A DNA stretch of 64,000 bases from an uncultured archaeon (GCA_964342815.1 CAYFHS010000004.1:1-64000), one strand, 5' to 3'. Positions 7,044 to 17,203 are shown, counted from the first letter of the stretch. Translations and numbers: made by a program. The notes: generated by a model from the letters alone, not told the origin.

Positions 7044-7844
7044 TTGAGTAAAATGATGACGTTTCTGGAGCATATCCATGAACTGCAAAGGTGCTTGAAA
7101 AAAGTATTTGGCTTGATATTCATTGAGTTTATTTTCTTTTTCACATTTGGGTTCAAGGAGTTCTATTTCAGGAGTACAATGCTAGTTTATCCTTATCCTA
7201 CTTTAAAGAACTCTTTTTCAGCAGCCCTGTTCAGGAGAATGTGGGATTATCTGGTACCTATGAATTTGAATGGTGTGGTGATTAAACCCTATGCCAGTCT
7301 CGGGGGCGGCATTATGTTGCTGGTCATCATGTCCCTATTTTTGGCGATCACATTCAGCATGCCGATGACCCTTTGGGAACTCGCTAAATTCGTCAGTCCC
7401 GCTCTAAAAGAGAGGGAGAGGAGAGGTATCATAAAGACGATAATTCCTGCAACAATTCTCTTCCTTGGGGGCTGTGCATTCGCCTTTTTTTTATTGATTC
7501 CTTTCACAATCCATTTCCTCTTGCAGGTGATAGTTGGACTGGATGCAACCGCGCTTATTACAGTCGATGATTTCATGAAATTTGTTATTCTTTTTACTCT
7601 TGCCTTTGGGATAGTGTTCGAACTGCCCATAATAATGTACGGCCTTACCAGAATCGGAGTTGTGGAATCGAAATTCTGGCTGAGGAATTGGAGATACGCA
7701 TTTATTATGATGATAATCTTCGGAGGTATTATTACTCCCGATGGCAGCGGCATCACCCAGCTTATGATAGCAATTCCCATGTTAGGACTTTACTTTATTG
7801 GATACCTTGCTGGAAGGTCATTTGAGAAAAAACAAAACAACTAA
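7044..7844 (+). CDS. tatC: Twin-arginine translocase subunit TatC
   Basis: TFLEHIHEL, FVSPALKERE, FGIVFELP, WRYAFI...ITPDGSGITQLMIAIPM. Confidence 0.93.
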   Translation: MSKMMTFLEHIHELQRCLKKVFGLIFIEFIFFFTFGFKEFYFRSTMLVYPYPTLKNSFSAALFRRMWDYLVPMNLNGVVIKPYASLGGGIMLLVIMSLFLAITFSMPMTLWELAKFVSPALKERERRGIIKTIIPATILFLGGCAFAFFLLIPFTIHFLLQVIVGLDATALITVDDFMKFVILFTLAFGIVFELPIIMYGLTRIGVVESKFWLRNWRYAFIMMIIFGGIITPDGSGITQLMIAIPMLGLYFIGYLAGRSFEKKQNN

Positions 7845-7911
7845 AAGATTAACCTGTCTGTGTGATGGCTTATTTTTGATTTCTTCATCTTAGAATGCTA
7901 TGTTCCAAACC

Positions 7912-10368
7912 CTATTTTTCTTCTTTATTCTCGTGCTCGAGTGGGCCCATCTTCTTTCTTTTTATTATTATAATTAGAATGAACACAAATAATATAGTTA
8001 TAACCAAAGCACCAACAAGCCATGTTATCTGGCTAGCATTCTCCGTTGTTTCTACATCTTGAACGAGGGCAGGCTCAGCGTTTGAGAATGACACACCACT
8101 GATATTACCCGACTCATCAATAGCTACTAAAGCGAAATAATAGGTGGTTTCCGCTGTCAAACCTTCCAGAACGTATGAATCGTTTGTTGTATTGACAATG
8201 GGAGTGAGAGCAGATACATCGGTAATCGGGGACGTATTCCAATACAATTCATAATGATCCACCTCGGAGGATTCACTGAAATTCCACTTTAAATAAATTT
8301 TACTGTCATGGCCGTCCATAGCCAGGAATACCATTATGGGTTTTGAGCCGGAGATTGAGCTCAATGCGAGACTCATCATAGATTTATGCGCATCGTTATT
8401 TTCAGCAAAGCCCACTACATCGGTTACATCATTCCAGATCGGGTCTGAATAGCTCTGATGACAGCCAATGCACAGCCCGACCCTGCTTATTTTTTCCTGC
8501 TCCTCCTTATTGAAAGGTCTTGAACCAACATGGGATGTTGCCTGTATCTGCTTGCCGTCCTCATCTACAATTCTTTCAAGTTCAAAATCAATATTCAGTC
8601 CATTTCCGGATGGATCAAATATACCGGAACCGAGCCCCAACGTTTTTTGCTCGGTATGACAATCTTCACAGGTACGAGCGGAGGAGGAAATAGTATGAGG
8701 TTGGATGGGATTGTGGGCTATCCCTGATGTTCCATCTGTTGTGGTGTATATTTTATTCAGTACGACAACTTCCCCATTCTCATCGATATATGTGAATATG
8801 GCCTGGCATCCCGGGATAAATGGCGATACCTTTCCCTCTGCATTTATACCGAGGACAGGTGAACCCCATCGAAGATAGCTTCTTGATTCTTCCCATGAAT
8901 TCGTTGCGTCCTCTTTTGCATCAACCCAGTCATAACCGGTTTGAGAAGCATCCATCTTAGCATGACAGCCGTAACATTGCGGAGCCCACTTTGCATGGCA
9001 CGCATAGCACTCCAAACTATCGATATGAGGAATCGAACTCATGGCGGTTTTTGCGGCAGTACTTTTCCAGGATCCGGTTTCATTTATTAATTTTAGTATT
9101 GGTATTTCATGCTCTTTACCATCGTATTTCGAGGTCAGGGTCAAGGTATTTCCATTTTTTTCAATATTTGTAAACTCATTTCCGCCCGGGGTTCCATAAA
9201 TGGTACCATCGGCTTTTATGGCCCCGGAGGTCTTTACTTTTCCCTCCTCATCCCACGGGTATTCATCAGGCGTACCATGGCAGTCCGTGCATTCAATTTC
9301 CACGGCTTCCTCCTTTTTTGCATATATGTTACCGTCACCCATTATATCATTCTTAGTATGGCAGTCTATACATTGCATTCCGCGCTCGTAATGGACATCC
9401 GGGGTCAGATGGTTATAATTTTTTCCATGCAATTTTGATTGTTTCCCACCCGTATCCGTAAACGGTGTTCCATAGCCATCAGATTCCATGGTCCCTATAA
9501 AGCTAACGCCTGTTCGGCCGCCACGGTTATGACAATGAACACATTGTTCCGCGGGGATCCTGGTAGTGATCTCATGCTTGAGTGGATGGCCTGCTTCCTC
9601 CTTATTTACGGTGGTATCATTCCCAATATATAATCCCTCGTCAGAATAAAGAACATGGCAAGCGGAACAACCGCTTGAGCGATAATCGCCAGCGCGTTCT
9701 TTACCTTCGGTCCATATGTGACACCTCAAACACTGATTACGGAGATAATCGTCAATGGGTTCTGATGAATTCTGAAAGTTGGGTATTTGGCTCAGGCTTA
9801 GGAGTGCACCGTTTTCAGAAGGGACGTTTCCATCGGAATCTTCAATATCAAAAATCGAATAGGATGAGTTTCGGTCCTGAGCCCCCCAGGTATATCGCGA
9901 TCCGCTGATCATCCCTGCCATTGTTGCATGCATCGATTTTTTGACTCTATCAATTTCATTTAGATGACATTGCCCACACGTCCCCCGAACTACATTCAGA
10001 TCCCCGGGATTTATGAACATGCCCTTATGCGATTCATTTTTTTCAGCAGCTTCCCCATCGCCTTTGTGACAAGTTGTACATGAATAATCCATCTTCGGGT
10101 TAATGGGTTCAATACCTTGATGGCAGCCACCGCTCTCGCAACTCTCAACGGCCCGGGTATCTATGATCGCTGACTTCTCAGTAGATAGGATCGGGTTCTC
10201 GCTTTCAAATTTATCAGTATCGTTTTCGATCTCACTCGTATTTAATAATAAACACAACGAAATGATGATGACTGCGGAAAGAAAAAGAAAACTCCATTTT
10301 AATAATCTACCTTCCTTGAATATTTCCTTGACCCTTACACTAACATAAGTCATTCTATCGATTATCAT
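7912..10368 (-). CDS. Multiheme c-type cytochrome (11 CxxCH + 1 CX4CH) with an FN3-like domain and N- and C-terminal transmembrane segments
   Basis: Motifs CESGGCH, CTTCH, CGQCH, CLRCH, CSACH, CVHCH, CIDCH, CTDCH, CYACH, CYGCH, CEDCH, CIGCH. FN3-like segment LKW...HYELYW...LTAETTYYFALVAID. C-terminal hydrophobic helix followed by KRKK. Confidence 0.9.
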   Translation of the reverse strand: MIIDRMTYVSVRVKEIFKEGRLLKWSFLFLSAVIIISLCLLLNTSEIENDTDKFESENPILSTEKSAIIDTRAVESCESGGCHQGIEPINPKMDYSCTTCHKGDGEAAEKNESHKGMFINPGDLNVVRGTCGQCHLNEIDRVKKSMHATMAGMISGSRYTWGAQDRNSSYSIFDIEDSDGNVPSENGALLSLSQIPNFQNSSEPIDDYLRNQCLRCHIWTEGKERAGDYRSSGCSACHVLYSDEGLYIGNDTTVNKEEAGHPLKHEITTRIPAEQCVHCHNRGGRTGVSFIGTMESDGYGTPFTDTGGKQSKLHGKNYNHLTPDVHYERGMQCIDCHTKNDIMGDGNIYAKKEEAVEIECTDCHGTPDEYPWDEEGKVKTSGAIKADGTIYGTPGGNEFTNIEKNGNTLTLTSKYDGKEHEIPILKLINETGSWKSTAAKTAMSSIPHIDSLECYACHAKWAPQCYGCHAKMDASQTGYDWVDAKEDATNSWEESRSYLRWGSPVLGINAEGKVSPFIPGCQAIFTYIDENGEVVVLNKIYTTTDGTSGIAHNPIQPHTISSSARTCEDCHTEQKTLGLGSGIFDPSGNGLNIDFELERIVDEDGKQIQATSHVGSRPFNKEEQEKISRVGLCIGCHQSYSDPIWNDVTDVVGFAENNDAHKSMMSLALSSISGSKPIMVFLAMDGHDSKIYLKWNFSESSEVDHYELYWNTSPITDVSALTPIVNTTNDSYVLEGLTAETTYYFALVAIDESGNISGVSFSNAEPALVQDVETTENASQITWLVGALVITILFVFILIIIIKRKKMGPLEHENKEEK

Positions 10369-10488
10369 ATCAATTAGAATAACTCTATATTATTTAACAA
10401 CAAGTACGATAATTTAAAGGGCATATGAGAAGAAAAGTAAGAATTGCAGTTTTAATTTCCCCATCAAACAAAAACACAAATTTTACTT

Positions 10489-10818
10489 CTACCTTGTTTT
10501 ATTTCTCCTGATCCTCTTCAGAACATGGTGAAATGCCAAAATGGGGTGTCTAGTTAGCATTCGGGGCCCGGCATATCTCATAACCGTTCTTATCCGGTCC
10601 CTCATGGATCCCTTGTAGCAGTGTATCGTACAAATACCGCAGGGGGTTTTCTTCTCCTGGAAGGGACATTTGTCGAGCCGTATATTTGCATATTCAAGCA
10701 GCTCCTTACATTCGGTACACAGTTTTCGCCCGCTCTCGTGATGAGCCCTACAATAGATATTTATCATTACCTCAACAGTTTTCTTTTCGCGCTTCATAAC
10801 GGGGTGCTCGCCTGACAT
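10489..10818 (-). CDS. YgbA / nitrous oxide-stimulated promoter family protein
   Basis: REKKTVEVMINIYC..HH...C..C..LLEYA..RLDKCP....K..C..C..HCY....R..I..VMRYAGPRM pattern. Confidence 0.85.
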   Translation of the reverse strand: MSGEHPVMKREKKTVEVMINIYCRAHHESGRKLCTECKELLEYANIRLDKCPFQEKKTPCGICTIHCYKGSMRDRIRTVMRYAGPRMLTRHPILAFHHVLKRIRRNKTR

Positions 10819-11069: not shown

Positions 11070-11159
11070 TTGTTCACCTGCGGGTGAATTGCGTTTGAGA
11101 ACGATAAATGTTTTCCTGAAATTGAATTTCCTGAAGACGAGGCAATGTTACTTGGCCGA

Positions 11160-11197
11160 GGGCGATAGTCCCCGAGGAGCGCAGTTTCATGTCTAAC
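11160..11197 (-). repeat. Intergenic GC-rich repeat, copy 1 (attC-like remnant)
   Basis: GGGCGATAGTCCCCGAGGAGCGCA (11160-11183) matches 13830-13853 at 23/24 positions. Followed by GTCTAAC (11191-11197), which fits the RYYYAAC/GTTRRRY core. Confidence 0.6.
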
Positions 11198-11217
11198 GTA
11201 TCCTAACAAATGATTCT

Positions 11218-12252
11218 TTAGATTCTGGGAGTGGGAACTTGTGAAAAAACGTAGTGAATTATGTCCTGAACCTCAAGCTTCAGAGACACTCCTTTGTCAT
11301 TTAATTTCGCCATGTGTAATATCATACCTTTAGAAGTAATTCTTACATCATCAGGAATGACGTAATCTCTATCATCAATTCTTGCTGAGACCATAGAAAT
11401 GTTTAATGCCTTCTTGATATCATTCATTTGAAGATTATGGGTTAGTATCGGAAATTCGCTTATCATGATCATACATTCAACCAGATATATTGGAATATTA
11501 TTTTCGATATATATATCATCGATAATCTCGGGCTTTTCATTAAGTAGTTGATTCATTTGACTAAAAGTATCCTTAATATCCTCATTATCTAATGCCTCTT
11601 TTATACTGCTATAATCTCCCTTATTCGTGGCTGGTTTTAATCTTGATACTTCATTTGCATAATCTGAGATTTGTTTCTTCACTTGTACCTTATTGAGATG
11701 TTGTTCCTTTAGTTTTTGTTTGTAGATCTTTCTTAAATTGTTTGTTTTCGTACTTGAAAGATTGGATACGCACAATGAATTTGGTTTTACTTCTCGCTGT
11801 ATGAGAGAGTCCTTATTTACAATGATATATACTATGGATTTTTCGAGTTTATTAAAGATATCCTTAGCTTTACTTACTAATTCTTGGTCAAACTCATAGT
11901 CTGAATAGCGAACAATTTCGAGTAATTCTACATAATTATCCAAGGCTTCTTCATCTAAATTTAAAGGTATCCCAATTCCCCTTCCAACCCTATTTAAATC
12001 ATATGGAAGGTTTCTGAATGTATTATTATAATTAAGGAGAAATCCATACTTTCGAAAATGCTTTGATAGACCTTGATAGGATATGAAAATGACTCCTTTA
12101 ATATTTTGATTTGGATCTAGCATCGCATATGATTTTTTAAAAATCTCTAGGAGACCTTTTATTTTCATTTTATTTCTATACCAAAGCAGGAATATAATAC
12201 AAAAAATCAAGCCTAGAATAAATCCAATGGAAATTGTGACTTCCATTATCAT
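11218..12252 (-). CDS. Membrane-anchored protein: TM + DUF4129-like domain + MoxR AAA-lid-like C-terminus, no Walker motifs
   Basis: N-terminal hydrophobic helix; LDEEALDNYVELLEIVRYSDYEF (DUF4129-like); ARIDDRDYVIPDDVR...QVPTP (MoxR C-terminal-like). Confidence 0.55.
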   Translation of the reverse strand: MIMEVTISIGFILGLIFCIIFLLWYRNKMKIKGLLEIFKKSYAMLDPNQNIKGVIFISYQGLSKHFRKYGFLLNYNNTFRNLPYDLNRVGRGIGIPLNLDEEALDNYVELLEIVRYSDYEFDQELVSKAKDIFNKLEKSIVYIIVNKDSLIQREVKPNSLCVSNLSSTKTNNLRKIYKQKLKEQHLNKVQVKKQISDYANEVSRLKPATNKGDYSSIKEALDNEDIKDTFSQMNQLLNEKPEIIDDIYIENNIPIYLVECMIMISEFPILTHNLQMNDIKKALNISMVSARIDDRDYVIPDDVRITSKGMILHMAKLNDKGVSLKLEVQDIIHYVFSQVPTPRI

Positions 12253-12314
12253 GTTATCCCCTCAAATTTTAACATACAACGTAAAACATCTTTTATATAT
12301 GTTTTTTTTTCAAA

Positions 12315-12389
12315 TAACAGAGAGATTTTCAAGGAACTCTGTTACTCCCGAGCGTTGGAGGGGGGCGGTAGTCCCCCGAGAAGCGCAAG
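12315..12389 (-). repeat. Intergenic repeat, copy 2: TAACAGAG...CTCTGTTA hairpin plus the shared GC-rich motif
   Basis: Arms at 12315-12322 and 12337-12344. GGGCGGTAGTCCCCCGAGAAGCGCA at 12363-12387 is a variant of the 11160/13830 motif. Confidence 0.55.
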
Positions 12390-12477
12390 TTTTACAGATG
12401 AAAATATTTGATTTTGCTTATTGCTTTTTAAGTTCTCTTTCATAAGCTAAAGGGATCTAAACTAATAAAACTTTCTG

Positions 12478-13584
12478 CTAATCGTCCTGAGATAAATACA
12501 GGTAATTTTCATTCTCTTTGATTTCTACTTTTCCTTTGATATGTCTTTTAAATTGGAGAAGGTTTTTTATTTCATTTCGTTTCTGAATCTGTATAATTTC
12601 GCCATTGGTCTTTGAGATAATTATATAAGGAACCGAGAGAGGAAAATCGATTACTTTAATATCTGAAAAGGGAATGAATACATCCATTTTCATGGATAGT
12701 AACTGCCTTATTGTTTTCCAAGGTATTGAAATACCATTTTCAAATACTTTTACCGACCGTTTAGGCGAGAGGCAGTTTGATAAAAATATGAGAGAAATTA
12801 ATCCAGAAGCACACCCTCCAAAAAGAAACATACAATATACGATAATAAAGGTCGTCATCGATGGTCCCTCTGAAAGAACTGGTTTAAATCTAAAAAGGGA
12901 GATGATGAAAAGATAAAGACAAAAAAGGGAAAAGTTCCCTGAAATTAATGCCACCCCGCCAGATTTTAACCTTTTAATAGGGGAAAATGTTTTTATAATT
13001 TCCTCATAAAGGAGAGCACCCGATTTTTTAAAGGATTTGGATGAATGAACATCTTGAATTCTTTTACTATTTGAAATATCTACTTTTCCTTTGATGTGTC
13101 TTTTAAATTGGAGGATACTCTTAATATCCTTTTGTTTCTGAAGCCGGACAATTTCTCCATTGGTCTTTGAGATAATAATAAAAGGAACCGATGGTGGAAA
13201 GTCGATAACTTCAATATCAGAATGAGGAATGAATACCTCCAATTTCATGAGCAGTAACTGTTTTATTGTCTTCCAAGGTATTGAAATACCATTTTCATAT
13301 ACTTTTATAGATTGTTCTGGGACTAAGAAATATGATAATAATATCAAGGAAGTTATGCTACATCCTAATGCACTAAAAAGAAATATTTCGGTAATAAATA
13401 ATGAGGCTATACCTTCATTAATATTAGAATATTCAAACTTTAAGGTGGACAAAAAAATGCCGAGAAAAGATAGAAAAGCAAGGAGAGTAAACATTATCCC
13501 CAAACTAGTATACTTTAATTTTCGTTCTCTTTTTAGAACAATTTCGTGATATAATAGCATACCTTTTATTTTAGTTTCGTTCAT
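12478..13584 (-). CDS. Hypothetical membrane protein made of two tandem copies of a 2-TM + soluble module
   Basis: VYENGISIPWKTIKQLL...FKRHIKGKVDI and VFENGISIPWKTIRQLL...FKRHIKGKVEI, each preceded by two hydrophobic helices. Confidence 0.75.
   Translation of the reverse strand: MNETKIKGMLLYHEIVLKRERKLKYTSLGIMFTLLAFLSFLGIFLSTLKFEYSNINEGIASLFITEIFLFSALGCSITSLILLSYFLVPEQSIKVYENGISIPWKTIKQLLLMKLEVFIPHSDIEVIDFPPSVPFIIISKTNGEIVRLQKQKDIKSILQFKRHIKGKVDISNSKRIQDVHSSKSFKKSGALLYEEIIKTFSPIKRLKSGGVALISGNFSLFCLYLFIISLFRFKPVLSEGPSMTTFIIVYCMFLFGGCASGLISLIFLSNCLSPKRSVKVFENGISIPWKTIRQLLSMKMDVFIPFSDIKVIDFPLSVPYIIISKTNGEIIQIQKRNEIKNLLQFKRHIKGKVEIKENENYLYLSQDD
12524..13308. repeat. Intragenic direct duplication: about 230-bp conserved blocks at 12524-12753 and 13079-13308 (offset 555 bp)
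   Basis: Visibly similar DNA at both copies, e.g. TCTACTTTTCCTTTGAT and CCAAGGTATTGAAATACCATTTTCA. Confidence 0.9.
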
Positions 13585-13800
13585 ATTTAAAATTCTCCTT
13601 ACCTGCTCGCATCATGCGGCCCATTTTGTGGTGGCGAATTGCTACTCCCGTTTTGTTTTCTCCATATGTCAAGAATTTCATCTTCTATTGTTGATAGAGA
13701 GTTGCTTTAAATAATCCCTTTGGCTGACTTTTTAACTACATTATTGGTTATTTAGATTATCTTTCTAATTTCGATAGGATACTTATGAGTACCTATTTCA

Positions 13801-13941
13801 GCGTGTCCGCTAGGACCGAGCACCGCAGTGGGCGATAGTCCACGAGGAGCGCAAGAGTTGCTAAATCGCTGGAAATGCCTTTTGAAAGTAGTTTCTCGAT
13901 TATATATCCAAGAGAGAAACTTTGCAAATCGTCTGTTATGC
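13801..13941 (-). repeat. Intergenic repeat, copy 3 (degenerate attC-like element)
   Basis: On the minus strand it starts GCATAAC (13941-13935) and contains an AGTTTCTC/GAGAAACT hairpin and the shared motif at 13830-13853. 13802-13818 is the exact 17-bp reverse complement of 15880-15896. Confidence 0.6.
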
Positions 13942-14141
13942 GTAGATCCATTTACGCTTTTTTCCGGCTTTCTGGCCCGATTTGCGGAGTGAGAAAGAAT
14001 CACATTTCCTGTTTACCAGATGGGTTATTATCTAAAAGCGAAGCGTGTATTTTTGTGTCGCTAATACTAATATTTTTTGGGATAATCCAAGTGTATTATG
14101 TGAACGTTTCCCATCTTCTTGTACGAGTTGTCTTCAAAGCA

Positions 14142-14729
14142 TTATGTTGGGCCAGGGTACTTTTGTTGGACATATGAAAGCAGGAACCACCCATTTCTCA
14201 ATGGTAGATTATCAGTAGTGTAGATAAGAGTTCCTGTACTACCCTCGTGTGATTGTACTCGAAGAGATACAGTGATATTCCCATTAAATTTAGTATAATT
14301 ACAAAATACCCACATTTCCCCATTATATTTTGAGTTATTACTATATTGCCACATTTCACTCCCTGCTCTTTTCACAGATCCATTATGGGTGCTCAAATAG
14401 AATTGAGAATATGGGCTACGGCCATTTTTTTCAAGTTCTACACTATTATTACCTTCTATGCACAAACATCTCCCATATTTGGTATTTGTTAAATAATATT
14501 TTGCAGCCCCTCGTGTAATCTTCAGATTTTCTATTATTGGTGACGTCGAGCCATCATCTAATATTGGAATTGGAGTATAAATAATATAAGAGCCATTACC
14601 ATTCGCAACAACATTAATCCCTACATAAAATACGCCTTTGGATTTGGTATCTTGATCCCCGATTATACAACCCATAGACGACAAAGAAAGAGCGAGAACG
14701 ACTAAGACCACAATAGGAAGCTTCTTCAT
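14142..14729 (-). CDS. Hypothetical secreted lipoprotein
   Basis: MKKLPIVVLVVLALSLSSMGC: basic N-terminus, hydrophobic core and lipobox-like Cys. ATG at 14729 preferred over the ORF-track start. Confidence 0.7.
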   Translation of the reverse strand: MKKLPIVVLVVLALSLSSMGCIIGDQDTKSKGVFYVGINVVANGNGSYIIYTPIPILDDGSTSPIIENLKITRGAAKYYLTNTKYGRCLCIEGNNSVELEKNGRSPYSQFYLSTHNGSVKRAGSEMWQYSNNSKYNGEMWVFCNYTKFNGNITVSLRVQSHEGSTGTLIYTTDNLPLRNGWFLLSYVQQKYPGPT

Positions 14730-14829
14730 ATCTTCACCAAGTTGAATAGATAACATATTCGTTCATTTCCTATATATTCTTTCTTTGCAGCGACACAAAA
14801 ATGTAAAAAACCCATCTGGTGATTTAGCA

Positions 14830-14889
14830 ATTACGTATAACTCCCCTATTGACGAACAGAAAGTTCGGAAAAGGGGAGTTATACGTAAT
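14830..14889. repeat. Perfect 18-bp inverted repeat with GTATAAC/GTTATAC cores
   Basis: ATTACGTATAACTCCCCT (14830-14847) and AGGGGAGTTATACGTAAT (14872-14889), with an inner GAAC/GTTC stem. Confidence 0.9.
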
Positions 14890-15106
14890 CATGTGGCAAA
14901 ATATTTTGTGAACAGTAGTAATAATGATGTTTTTTTAAAAAAGAAGTTTACATAACTATTTTTCAAGATATGAATACTTGGATTGAATCAACGTACTTTG
15001 AAATACGAATACGACAGTTTTATATATTATCTTTTGTATTCTATGCTAAAAAGGATTTGGATCGGAGATAATATCATCTACCCATAAAGTTAAGAATGGT
15101 GACAAA

Positions 15107-15754
15107 ATGGTGTATTCCACCGGTAAAATCATTCGTCTATGCATCGTTATATTACTTACTAATGGCATCCTTTTTCTTCTTTATTTCAGTTTGGGCTGGA
15201 TTGATCATGACGATGAAAAAGAAGAAAAAGTGGAGGATGAACCGCATTATGCTGACCGAAGTTATGGATTCAAAATAATCCACAAAGAAGGGTGGATTTC
15301 TGATAACGGTTCTAACGAGATGTACATGGTCCGATACTATGTCGGACTTCATTCTAGCACTCCGCCAATTGATATTGAAAGTGACCTTACGATTTGTCTC
15401 ACTTGGGTTGATACCAATCCCCAAGGAAATATTAGTGGGGAGACATTTTTAACACATATTAATAACACTTCACCTGATTATAATAATCGATTTAACTACA
15501 CTATTATCGCGGATCCTCATAACTCTTTAGCAAAAAAAGGATTGCTCGATGATGAATCTCAAATCCTTGTCTATTTTGATTTTAGAAATTTAGATAAAAA
15601 TTCACAACCAATGAATAAGAGCTTAAACCCTGGTTCTGAATGCGTTGTTAAGTTTATCCCTGAAAATAAAACACCTACGGTTAGCGCGTTTTGGGTTCCA
15701 AAATCATTCCCTAAAAATGGAGGGTGGGTATATATTGACTGGCAACGTCGATAA
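15107..15754 (+). CDS. Archaellin (archaeal flagellin)-like globular domain with a non-canonical N-terminal anchor
   Basis: TPPIDI..., IIADPHNSL...LLDD, LNPGSECVVKFIPENKTPTV..F.VP resemble the archaellin C-terminal domain (GSPPIDL; IRD.DGS; L.P...V...IPE.GAP...F..P). No class III signal or GIGTLIVF segment. Confidence 0.55.
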   Translation: MVYSTGKIIRLCIVILLTNGILFLLYFSLGWIDHDDEKEEKVEDEPHYADRSYGFKIIHKEGWISDNGSNEMYMVRYYVGLHSSTPPIDIESDLTICLTWVDTNPQGNISGETFLTHINNTSPDYNNRFNYTIIADPHNSLAKKGLLDDESQILVYFDFRNLDKNSQPMNKSLNPGSECVVKFIPENKTPTVSAFWVPKSFPKNGGWVYIDWQRR

Positions 15755-15864
15755 GAAGAAAGAGAATATTTTATCATAGAAGGATGTTAGAAGTAGTAGT
15801 AATAATTATGCAAACTAGAGAGAAATTCACAAAATACATAATCTTTTGCCTCATGACTCTCCGT

Positions 15865-15987
15865 TCCCGTTGGTCACTACGGTCCTAGCGGACACGTATA
15901 ACTTGCAGATTTCAGGCTCTCGGCTGACGCCTCCGCTCCAAATTGCTCCCTATGGTCGCAACTTCGGAAATCTGCGTACCGTTATGC
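15865..15987 (+). mobile_element. attC-like recombination site (core 15896-15987, 92 bp) with an upstream GC-rich repeat module
   Basis: GTATAAC (15896-15902) / GTTATGC (15981-15987) outer arms; GCAGATTTC (15905-15913) / GAAATCTGC (15967-15975) inner arms; asymmetric spacers (2 vs 5 nt); terminal TTGC/GCAA stem. Lies downstream of a same-strand orphan gene. Confidence 0.65.
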
Positions 15988-16250
15988 GATAGTTTCACGA
16001 AGTTTTCATCAGACGAGGCGACCAAAAAAATAACAATCCGGGAGAGTCCAAATCATCTCTACCAAAATCCACTTCCTTCAGTTTAGCGGAATTCCGATGA
16101 ATGTATATCTTACCGTCAATAACGGCTTATTATGCATGACTGCCCTTCCTGTAGATAGTAAACGATCCCACACATTATCAAAATACAGAAGCTTAATTCT
16201 AACACTGAACATAGAAATATTTACTTACTATTAAATCTTTACAGATTGCT

Positions 16251-17015
16251 GTGAAGGAAATGAGTGAAACCAGGTCCTTTGGAGTGATCCAAGGCTTATC
16301 AAGAAAGAAGATCAAGGGGATTCTAAGCCTCAATAATCAAAAGAATTATACTATACATAAAGTATCTCCACTACGGACCCGGGTAATTATGGGAATTGGC
16401 GGTTCCGCAGGTGTGGAGGAGACCTCAAATGAGGCAAGACCCCGTAAATGGCAGGATGATTTAACCAATGTCATTGAAGCAATGGACGTCCCCATAAGAA
16501 TATTTGATGAAATTGGTTTGTTCATCGTTATCGGTTTATTGGCTCTTCTTGGTTTTTTGTTTCTTTGGGTATATATCACAATCCCGCTGTTGTTGTTAAT
16601 ATTGAGCTTTATTACGAATGGATATGCGTGGAAAATGTTGAAGATTTATCTGATGGAGATATATCCCAGTTCCGAAAAGAATTTCGAAAAGCTCGTCAAA
16701 GATATTTATTTAGGGGGCGGTGTAACATCAAAGCACTGGTTGAAAACCTTAAAAAACCATAGCGTCCGTAATCAGCTCCAAAAAATGCGAAAAACCCATA
16801 TCTGGTTCATAAAAGGTCTCAGTGTGACATCGTATAGCTTATTCATTCTTGCACTTATCGTTTCGATATCCAAATTCCTCTCCATCCCTGGAAGTGTGAT
16901 GGAAGTTCTCTGGATGTCTCTGGTGGGTCTCGCAGCAATAAGTTTCCTGTTTTCATCATATATGCTGATACGCCGCAGGAAATTGAAGCGAAATTTGAAA
17001 AGCACTATTTGGTAA
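16251..17015 (+). CDS. Hypothetical membrane protein (about 4 TM)
   Basis: Long ORF with two pairs of hydrophobic helices; no family recognised. Confidence 0.7.
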   Translation: MKEMSETRSFGVIQGLSRKKIKGILSLNNQKNYTIHKVSPLRTRVIMGIGGSAGVEETSNEARPRKWQDDLTNVIEAMDVPIRIFDEIGLFIVIGLLALLGFLFLWVYITIPLLLLILSFITNGYAWKMLKIYLMEIYPSSEKNFEKLVKDIYLGGGVTSKHWLKTLKNHSVRNQLQKMRKTHIWFIKGLSVTSYSLFILALIVSISKFLSIPGSVMEVLWMSLVGLAAISFLFSSYMLIRRRKLKRNLKSTIW

Positions 17016-17203
17016 AAAAGAGGACCTGTCCACCTCTAACTTCCCATTATTGTCCATCTGTATTCATATCGTTTTTCGGGCCATTTCCATCTATTTTCGT
17101 CCCCCTTTTGTAAAATTTCGGATAAACGGCCTGAATTTTTATCGTCATTAACCATTATATCATTAACTTTTTTATAGTGTCGTTGCATCTCACGGGCAGT
17201 TCT

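Follow-up and report, generated by a model that had tools for sequence, protein, structure and literature searches.

Integrons are the classic gene-capture machine of bacteria. In the chromosomal superintegron of Vibrio cholerae, many cassettes with mostly ORFan or toxin-antitoxin cargo are joined by long, similar attC sites (VCRs), and the content varies between close relatives. Here, we analyze a cassette-like island within a 64,000-nt stretch of DNA from an uncultured archaeon (GCA_964342815.1, CAYFHS010000004.1, positions 1 to 64000), the whole of which is called the window below. The closest described archaeal systems are the integrons and clusters of attC sites lacking integrase (CALINs) first reported in 2022 by Ghaly et al. 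(Sci Adv; PMC9668308), who found arrays in archaeal metagenome-assembled genomes (MAGs) that mostly lack an integrase; nearly all are orphan arrays. Proteins that are unknown, carry signal peptides or belong to toxin-antitoxin systems are enriched in their cargo, and in IntI1 assays eight of nine archaeal attCs recombined at a control-like frequency (PMC9668308). In the first part of Data S1 of that paper, Thermoplasmatota genomes, mostly of class E2, are listed with 4 to 16 attCs and no IntI. The Thermoplasmatota attC that was assayed was of the short bacterial type, unlike the family described here, so the assays provide no direct experimental link (PMC9668308).

We read positions 11127 to 17104 of the window as a partly decayed CALIN, that is, a chromosomal integron-type cassette cluster without a nearby integrase, in a marine Thermoplasmatota archaeon, and we consider this reading likely to be correct. 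Archaeal CALINs, including Thermoplasmatota examples without IntI, have already been published, and the window is a further case of this known kind. The cluster is organized around a central palindrome (hereafter PAL), with one intact cassette to its right and three degenerate single-gene cassettes to its left on the minus strand. The attC hairpins of the three left-hand cassettes appear to have been deleted (at 13802), shrunk to a 9-bp stem (12314-12345) and truncated at the island edge (~11127-11152). The reading draws on features that can be seen directly: the anatomy of the sites, their membership in a family, the arrays of that family across the genome, the content that differs between congeners and a junction that lies beside a recombinase gene.

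The one intact site is a long attC of 92 nt at 15896-15987 on the plus strand, consisting of R'' GTATAAC, L'' GCAGATTTC, a branched tip, L' GAAATCTGC and R' GTTATGC. Each R box fits the RYYYAAC/GTTRRRY consensus at six of seven positions, the 9-bp L box is set off by unequal spacers that produce an asymmetric bubble, and the length falls within the ~57 to 141 nt of attC sites. The bottom strand folds into the R box, a 5/2 asymmetric bubble, the 9-bp L box and the branched tip. The original prediction, made from the sequence alone, had described a 92-bp attC-like element with these outer boxes, inner arms and unequal spacers, and all of these are present. With a first covariance model (R1), 15896-15987 scored 90.1 bits. 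A leave-one-out model (R2), built from 16 other sites of the source genome with the window copy excluded, scored 15893-15990 at 81.6 bits (E 1.2e-17) on the plus strand and 14.6 bits on the minus strand; because R2 excludes the window copy and the plus strand lies far above the minus strand, the match is not circular and its orientation is defined. Rfam scans, by gathering threshold and by E value, returned neither an attC nor any other credible RNA family; the only match under E 0.01, Ysr283, reached 25 bits against a gathering score of 58 and was taken as chance.

The window lies on contig C4 of the source genome (G000; 4.35 Mb, 88.9% complete), in which R1 recovered at least 21 long attC sites. 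They form co-oriented arrays on contigs C69, C14, C2, C68, C42, C47 and C7, spaced 1.2 to 2.2 kb apart with one or two open reading frames (ORFs) per unit; the C69 array has four, and the C14 array has seven and reaches a contig end that stops within another R'. Seventeen full-length copies align in attC anatomy at ~92 to 125 nt core to core, with 91% of R-box cells paired and compensatory changes at five of eight L-box pairs. Read in the gene sense, the spacers measure 3 nt on the R'' side and ~6 nt on the R' side, and an inner stem, AACTTCC/GGAAGTT, closes the variable tip. Covariation and percent paired in this alignment exceeded 500 of 500 shuffles and all slid controls, under a consensus structure that was set by hand, RNAalifold alone having given the L box and missed the R box. 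Some members, here and in the more distant genome G010, carry the fully canonical boxes GCCTAAC/GTTAGGC, and the variants GTATAAC/GTTATAC and GCATAAC/GTTATG(C/T) are shared with attCs of Hadarchaeota and Hydrothermarchaeota that were selected for IntI1 assays (PMC9668308). The inverted repeat around the R boxes was seen to reach 12 nt (ATTTCGCATAAC / GTTATGCGAAAT), for example at G000:C42:17916-17976 and at window 14830-14889, which accounts for a conserved cassette start, TTATGCGAAAT; the recognized core may be longer than the classical 7-nt R box. A degenerate 12-nt core, GTTAT(G/A)CG(A/T)AAT, proved too loose for a census (41 matches versus 31 in the reversed control), and a crude regular-expression attC scanner, which mixed true sites with random matches, was replaced by nhmmer and the covariance models.

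PAL itself is a 50-nt hairpin at 14835-14884 (plus strand; GTATAAC-TCCCC...GGGGA-GTTATAC), located between the divergent cassettes, with the crossover core G↓TTATAC (arrow, crossover point) on both arms. The palindrome reaches 14830-14889, where it forms an 18-bp stem of -22 kcal/mol (z -10 to -13). It is one of two TAAC...GTTA palindromes that had been predicted; both exist, and this one is strong, while the other, at 12314-12345, does not reach significance. PAL belongs to a family of pattern G(C/T)ATAAC-TCCCC...CGAAC-N5-GTTCG...GGGGA-GTTAT(G/A)C, 50 nt in length, whose stems vary in compensatory fashion (TCCCC/GGGGA, TCCGCC/GGCGGA, TCCCT/AGGGA). A census with a loose-spacing pattern, for which the reversed-pattern control gave 0, found five full copies in the source genome (C4, C68, C42, C2 and C1), one cut at the end of contig C47 and one half-copy on C7, as well as four copies in a same-genus congener (G001). 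Wherever PAL and long attCs occur within a few kilobases of one contig, PAL stands at the upstream end of the first cassette (arrays on C42, C2, C1, C47, C68 and, with the half-copy, C7; in G001 on C87 and, twice, on C158), and it is reversed relative to the attCs at 8 of 10 array heads. The fourth G001 copy, on C74, has no attC within 10 kb and stands outside this array-head count.

The left half of the cluster is recognizable from a second conserved element. Exact copies of a GC-rich motif, GGGCGATAGTCCNCGAGGAGCGCA, lie at 11160-11183 and 13830-13853, against 0 expected from 100 dinucleotide-preserving shuffles, and a third copy, with a one-base indel, lies at 12363; all three copies share one orientation, and each lies 30 to 285 nt past the stop codon of a minus-strand ORF. 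A perfect 17-nt inverted repeat links 13802-13818 with 15880-15896. Both the motif behind three minus-strand genes and the reverse-complement block had been noticed in the original prediction, and both hold. Read on the minus strand, the GC-rich motif forms the 5' portion of a composite element, of which there are other copies in the source genome. In order, this element consists of (A)AACTGCGC, hairpin A, GCTCGG, hairpin B (GGNNC-TAGC-GNNCT, which holds the 17-nt block), 1 to 3 nt and then an attC made of R'' G(C/T)ATAAC, L'', a variable tip, L' and R' GTTAT(G/A)C. About 15 of the 21 long attCs have hairpin B in front of them, and its stem occurs in at least six compensatory variants; in the window it lies within the region 15860-15895 (plus strand; GGTCC-TAGC-GGAC), directly 5' of R''. 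An nhmmer census of the 4.35 Mb found 11 such pre-attC modules, of which seven abut the R'' of a long attC, three lie in the window and one is an orphan in the C68 array; the repeats are thus confined to cassette contexts and co-oriented arrays of one or two ORFs per unit, and are not scattered through the genome.

The three minus-strand modules appear to record the loss or shrinkage of the adjoining hairpin. Module copy 3 (13803-13855; hairpins A and B) ends exactly where R'' (TATAAC) is due, its attC hairpin is absent, and it runs on into C(T)GAAAT, similar to the usual post-R' GCGAAAT; because it stops at that point and continues as post-R'-like sequence, loss of a whole hairpin would fit here. 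A profile hidden Markov model (HMM) built without the window copies recovered it genome-wide at 13855-13804 (E 3.4e-5). Module copy 2 (12341-12392; hairpin A and the GCTCGG linker; nhmmer E 4.8e-9) was recovered by the same leave-out HMM at 12392-12341 (E 2.3e-5). It is followed by a minus-strand mini-hairpin, GTAACAGAG / CTCTGTTAT, at 12314-12345, whose 8- to 9-bp stem may be read as a shrunken attC with an R''/R' remnant and which is succeeded by GTTATTTGAAAA, similar to the family cassette start GTTATGCGAAAT; the stem is weak (z -1.7, not significant) and gives no R1 or R2 match. Module copy 1 (11155-11187; the hairpin A part only) scores weakly in the leave-out HMM (11187-11157, E 0.32) and is followed by GTAAC, with no recognizable R', at the island edge. 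The prediction of a decaying attC cluster without integrase is thus supported, in that these sites keep the module and have lost or shrunk the hairpin. Hairpins A and B are candidates for part of an extended site, for an accessory binding site or for a terminator. A further observation concerns the orphan module of the C68 array (G000:C68:3429-3481), which sits between two ORFs and lacks an attC core, so that module-only decay is not unique to the window.

The island is set in an archaeal chromosome, as had been thought probable. The small-subunit (SSU) rRNA of the source genome scores 1513 bits with the archaeal model versus 1096 bits with the bacterial one, and G001 is recorded as a Thermoplasmatota MAG (ETNP2_MAG_1). 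On the right flank, a lysine operon whose asd is of the archaeal/eukaryal type precedes a LipS2 lipoyl synthase, and synteny with G001 extends over more than 20 kb of the window; given these flanking gene types and this synteny, the contig is no mis-binned bacterial piece. Homology to G001 stops near 11126, beside HMA/YgbA genes (CopZ-like), and restarts near 17104, by aspartokinase and the lysine operon, as determined by tblastx and sequence comparison. Between these limits, GC content is 32 to 37% at 11 to 16 kb and 39% at 16 to 17 kb, against 45 to 50% in the surroundings, which agrees with the AT-rich run first described. At the same locus G001 keeps both flanks, and between them, where the window has its 6-kb island, lie 2.2 kb of AT-rich genes unrelated to it, so that the gene content is not one conserved in synteny. 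A tRNA-targeted integrative element is ruled out, as a tRNA search of the window found none. Two side observations bear on the neighborhood. Just left of the island, at 7838-10494, lies an 818-aa multihaem cytochrome gene (ExtM-like, 348 bits, below cut-off) without a counterpart at the syntenic G001 position, where ~1.2 kb stands opposite 2.66 kb, making a second variable spot. In addition, G001:C81:46847-46944 holds a long attC (76 bits) within the window-syntenic region, at about window 40 kb, where the window has no attC match; the two genomes therefore differ in their cassette insertions at several places.

Which enzyme might act on these sites is a question for the rest of the genome, since contig C4, searched with PF00589, TIGR02249 and NF040815, yielded no tyrosine recombinase, in line with the earlier remark that no integrase was in view. 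Genome-wide searches for an IntI-type recombinase and for further motif copies, both of which had been suggested, turned up the attC family and a XerA-like protein, and no IntI-specific domain. This protein, of 391 aa (G000:C7:140389-141561), has Phage_int_SAM_4 and Phage_integrase domains and scores 222.4 bits with the archaeal XerA model NF040815 (cut-off 220), being the only source-genome protein above that cut-off. Its TIGR02249 score is 203.5 bits (cut-off 265), and the match falls into two segments that leave model positions 168 to 234 unmatched. It places 29 aa opposite 70 aa of VchIntIA (2A3V) and has no IntI-specific domain around patch III, whereas its alignment with Pyrococcus XerA (4A8E) is gapless from end to end; the span from GKGxKxR to HxLRH measures 69 to 72 aa in all eight relatives in which the motif pair was found. 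Beyond the XerA fold it carries an IntI-like C-terminal tail (...SPLD) and a ~95-aa N-terminal extension that has no Pfam or NCBIfam match. The extension (L001:1222-1506, equivalent to G000:C7:140389-140673) was noted to contain the motif ...RWHETGKFWSLPYEE... and to be kept in the long orthologues of G001, G002, G003, G008 and G010, and it is missing in the 299-aa forms of G011 and G021. No other recombinase candidate in the source genome is comparably strong.

The position of this gene is what suggests a link to the cassettes. The attI-like half-PAL lies at C7:141641-141684, 80 nt past the recombinase stop codon, and a cassette array follows; attI sites of published integrons are found immediately downstream of intI (PMC9668308). 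The source genome and G001 are near-identical from the recombinase through ...AATAGGGGAGTTATGCG (the endpoint is also given as GTTATGCG and as ...GGGGAGTTATGCG) and unrelated beyond it, and, judged from this comparison, the divergence point appears to behave as an attI crossover point with a G↓TT core. The layout recurs in other families: in G010, ~100 nt separate the recombinase from an inverted repeat that ends in GAGTTAGGCGAAAT, after which come an AT-rich ORF, hairpin B and an attC of 74.8 bits with canonical boxes (GCCTAAC...GTTAGGC); in G011 the recombinase is transcribed divergently from two attC matches; and G014 has a partial recombinase 1 kb away from an attC. Contig ends hold several of the orthologues, which is expected for genes beside repeats. 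With moderate confidence, we suggest that the C7 XerA-like protein is the likely recombinase of the cassettes. The link is one of association rather than proof, and the enzyme may also, or only, serve as a housekeeping Xer.

The best-surviving alternative, which we regard as unlikely, is that these are classical IntI-dependent cassettes, the IntI having been lost, having acted in another host or lying in the 11% of the genome that is not assembled, and that the C7 protein is a chromosome-dimer resolvase that sits beside an array by chance. The incompleteness of the assembly leaves room for this, in archaeal MAGs a CALIN without IntI is the form most often found (PMC9668308), and both the attC anatomy and the R-box variants fit sites that IntegronFinder calls and that were picked for IntI1 assays (PMC9668308); a sole protein above the XerA cut-off is also what a resolvase would lead one to expect. 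A chance neighbor, however, would not account for an attI-like core after the recombinase at which two congeners diverge exactly, nor for the recurrence of the recombinase-site-cassette-attC layout in other families. Moreover, no source-genome protein matched TIGR02249 above cut-off, and in the first part of Data S1 of Ghaly et al. (PMC9668308) none of the Thermoplasmatota rows has an IntI.

Returning to the window, the cassettes hold AT-rich genes for membrane or secreted proteins that are ORFan or of archaeal type, in keeping with published cassette cargo. The intact right-hand cassette (~14879-15981) starts at PAL TTATACGTAAT, holds a plus-strand gene at 15107-15754 and ends, after hairpin B, with the 92-nt attC. 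Its 215-aa product, with an N-terminal anchor, resembles archaellin or type IV pilin-like clusters (feature score 0.94; TM score 0.57 to 0.61; members 96 to 100% Archaea). On the minus strand, module copy 3 follows 14142-14756, which encodes a 204-aa protein with a signal peptide and a lipobox-like LSSMGC; the clusters closest to this protein are of archaeal hypothetical proteins (feature score 0.94; TM score 0.65). These atlas matches are leads rather than proof, and they would agree with archaeal cargo. Module copy 2 follows 12478-13584 (minus strand), an ORFan of 368 aa with four transmembrane segments and two 185-aa repeats, and module copy 1 follows 11218-12252 (minus strand), which encodes 344 aa with an N-terminal transmembrane segment. 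Within the 368-aa ORF, a 300-nt direct repeat was observed (12521-12820 / 13076-13375; 77% identity, 555-nt period), giving two transmembrane segments per ~185-aa unit. Among 5.8 billion proteins, the only match to this protein was one identical 360-aa cluster covering 98% of the query, which is probably the same protein. A fifth ORF, at 16251-17015 on the plus strand (254 aa, multiple transmembrane segments), also lies in the variable island and is absent from G001, and no attC follows it. All four cassette ORFs have a hydrophobic N terminus or several transmembrane segments, none matched a Pfam family at E<=0.01, and tblastx of the island against the source genome found no meaningful cargo paralogs. 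The original picture of unrelated, orphan membrane or secreted genes of archaeal appearance is therefore upheld, except for a DUF4129-like domain, which has no Pfam match at that threshold.

The island also exists in other samples. Contigs from marine or seawater metagenomes of four studies (2014 to 2023) run at 100% identity along most of it; their loose ends for the most part run into paralogous copies of the repeats. No joints were seen in these contigs, which are short and of low depth and have no bearing on excision. At window 15592, within the pilin-like ORF, each of the four metagenome runs has a contig that departs from the window sequence into one and the same AT-rich 30-mer, and coverage at 15648-15881 is low or nil in three of the four runs. 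The departure may reflect a variant in the population whose pilin-like gene has another 3' end, or a paralog elsewhere.

A second alternative, to our minds improbable, dispenses with cassettes altogether: the island would be a surface-protein accessory region acquired by some other route, the GC-rich motifs would be 3' RNA stem-loops (terminators or stability elements) in the untranslated regions (UTRs) of a gene family, and PAL would be an operator between divergent promoters. The modules are indeed GC-rich hairpins just past stop codons, PAL does lie between divergently transcribed genes, the G001 island at the same locus is without attC, and the array in the window is identical in the metagenomes of four studies. 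Yet the cassette ORFs are mutually unrelated, so descent within a gene family does not explain a shared 3' UTR. Outside the window, moreover, the module only abuts attC R'' boxes or sits inside arrays, and the PAL family heads arrays that are not divergent, its half-copy being the junction beside the recombinase. A terminator or stability role and a recombination role are in any case not exclusive. That the elements are instead selfish repeats spreading on their own and accumulating in AT-rich intergenic DNA, like repetitive extragenic palindromes and bacterial interspersed mosaic elements (REP/BIME) or miniature inverted-repeat transposable elements (MITEs), is very hard to credit: short, structured, GC-rich and present in a few dozen copies with mosaic submodules though they are, they keep a uniform orientation within arrays at one to two genes per unit, lack target-site duplications or terminal inverted repeats as whole elements, match attC in architecture and core and mark a switch in content exactly at the G↓TT core between congeners.

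If the CALIN reading is adopted, we infer the following course for the chemistry of recombination, the strand used, the acting enzyme and the manner of stem loss. Cassettes would enter as circles, and a tyrosine recombinase acting in trans would recombine the folded attC with PAL or attI at the G↓TT core. Because PAL has a core on both arms, insertion would be possible in both directions, and insertions would extend both ways from it. Deletion of the hairpin, for example by replication slippage across the palindrome, would then fix the left-hand cassettes in place.

Several results weigh against the CALIN reading and must be set beside it. Of the five sites in the window, a single one is a strong attC, and R1 and R2 give no score for the three on the minus strand. 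CALINs are defined by two or more attC sites under 4 kb apart, as called with the attC models of IntegronFinder or HattCI; here PAL, 1 kb from the intact attC, reaches only 16.5 bits (E 0.07 to 0.08) with the long-attC models, compared with 81.6 to 90.1 bits for the intact site under these family models, which were built from the source genome's own sites. The folding energy of the intact site only marginally beats that of shuffles (z -1.5 for the bottom strand and -2.6 for the top strand), and its minimum-energy folds contain no single-base extrahelical bulges in the L box; folding of the bottom strand, which had been proposed as a way to find extrahelical bases, revealed only spacer asymmetry (5 nt versus 2 nt). 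In the counterpart island of G001, no module, PAL or attC was found, and because that island is AT-rich and variable nonetheless, something else may make the locus a hotspot. The 88.9%-complete genome yielded no canonical IntI, and the C7 candidate just passes the XerA model and could be a housekeeping Xer. Finally, no recombination event is demonstrated by these sequence data.

A broader proposal, which we put forward tentatively and hold to be somewhat short of an even chance, is that marine and sediment Thermoplasmatota have a second kind of integron, of which the window is one outpost. In such a system, a XerA-type recombinase without the IntI domain and with an extra N-terminal domain would act in trans on scattered PAL landing pads, each of which would seed a small array (two-directional here), and the two-hairpin module would be a functional part of an extended attC that outlives the recombination hairpin. 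At the level of the system, the non-IntI recombinase, the PAL landing pad and the pre-attC module go beyond the paper of Ghaly et al., and a literature search found nothing on any of the three.

The window adds a well-anchored chromosomal case with archaeal-type surface-protein cargo, and it shows how an array decays, the hairpin being lost while the flanking module survives. Taken with the rest of the genome, it makes a Xer-like recombinase without the IntI domain a possible enzyme for many integrase-less archaeal arrays. If that were true, surveys based on the IntI domain would undercount integrons, and the structural requirement for recombination at hairpin sites would need to be revisited, as the missing domain was thought to be essential for attC recombination.

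Compared with known systems, the elements resemble REP/BIME and MITE repeats in being short, GC-rich, hairpin-forming and mosaic intergenic repeats, but they stand in co-oriented arrays that delimit single genes, with an attC-type core and an association with a tyrosine recombinase. The C7 recombinase resembles the XerA of the archaeal XerA/dif system (PDB 4A8E, 5HXY) in aligning without the IntI insertion and in passing the NCBIfam XerA model, but it differs in its ~95-aa N-terminal extension and IntI-like C-terminal tail, and in place of a single conserved dif site there is a G↓TT core with variable cassettes downstream in several genomes. With the V. cholerae superintegron, the family shares many cassettes with highly similar long attCs within one genome, mostly ORFan or toxin-antitoxin cargo, a chromosomal location and content that differs between relatives; here, however, the host is archaeal, no IntI with the extra domain was found, no L-box extrahelical bases are evident, and the cassettes form many small dispersed clusters instead of one large array. 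The closest likeness is to the archaeal CALINs and integrons of Ghaly et al. (2022), which likewise consist of short, mostly co-oriented ORFs between attC hairpins, usually without an integrase. The IntI-specific domain, which published IntIs of archaea carry, is missing from the recombinase beside the arrays described here; and, unlike those CALINs, the present system has long attCs, an extra two-hairpin module 5' of R'', arrays headed by a 50-nt palindrome and, in the window, a largely decayed array that runs in both directions from PAL.

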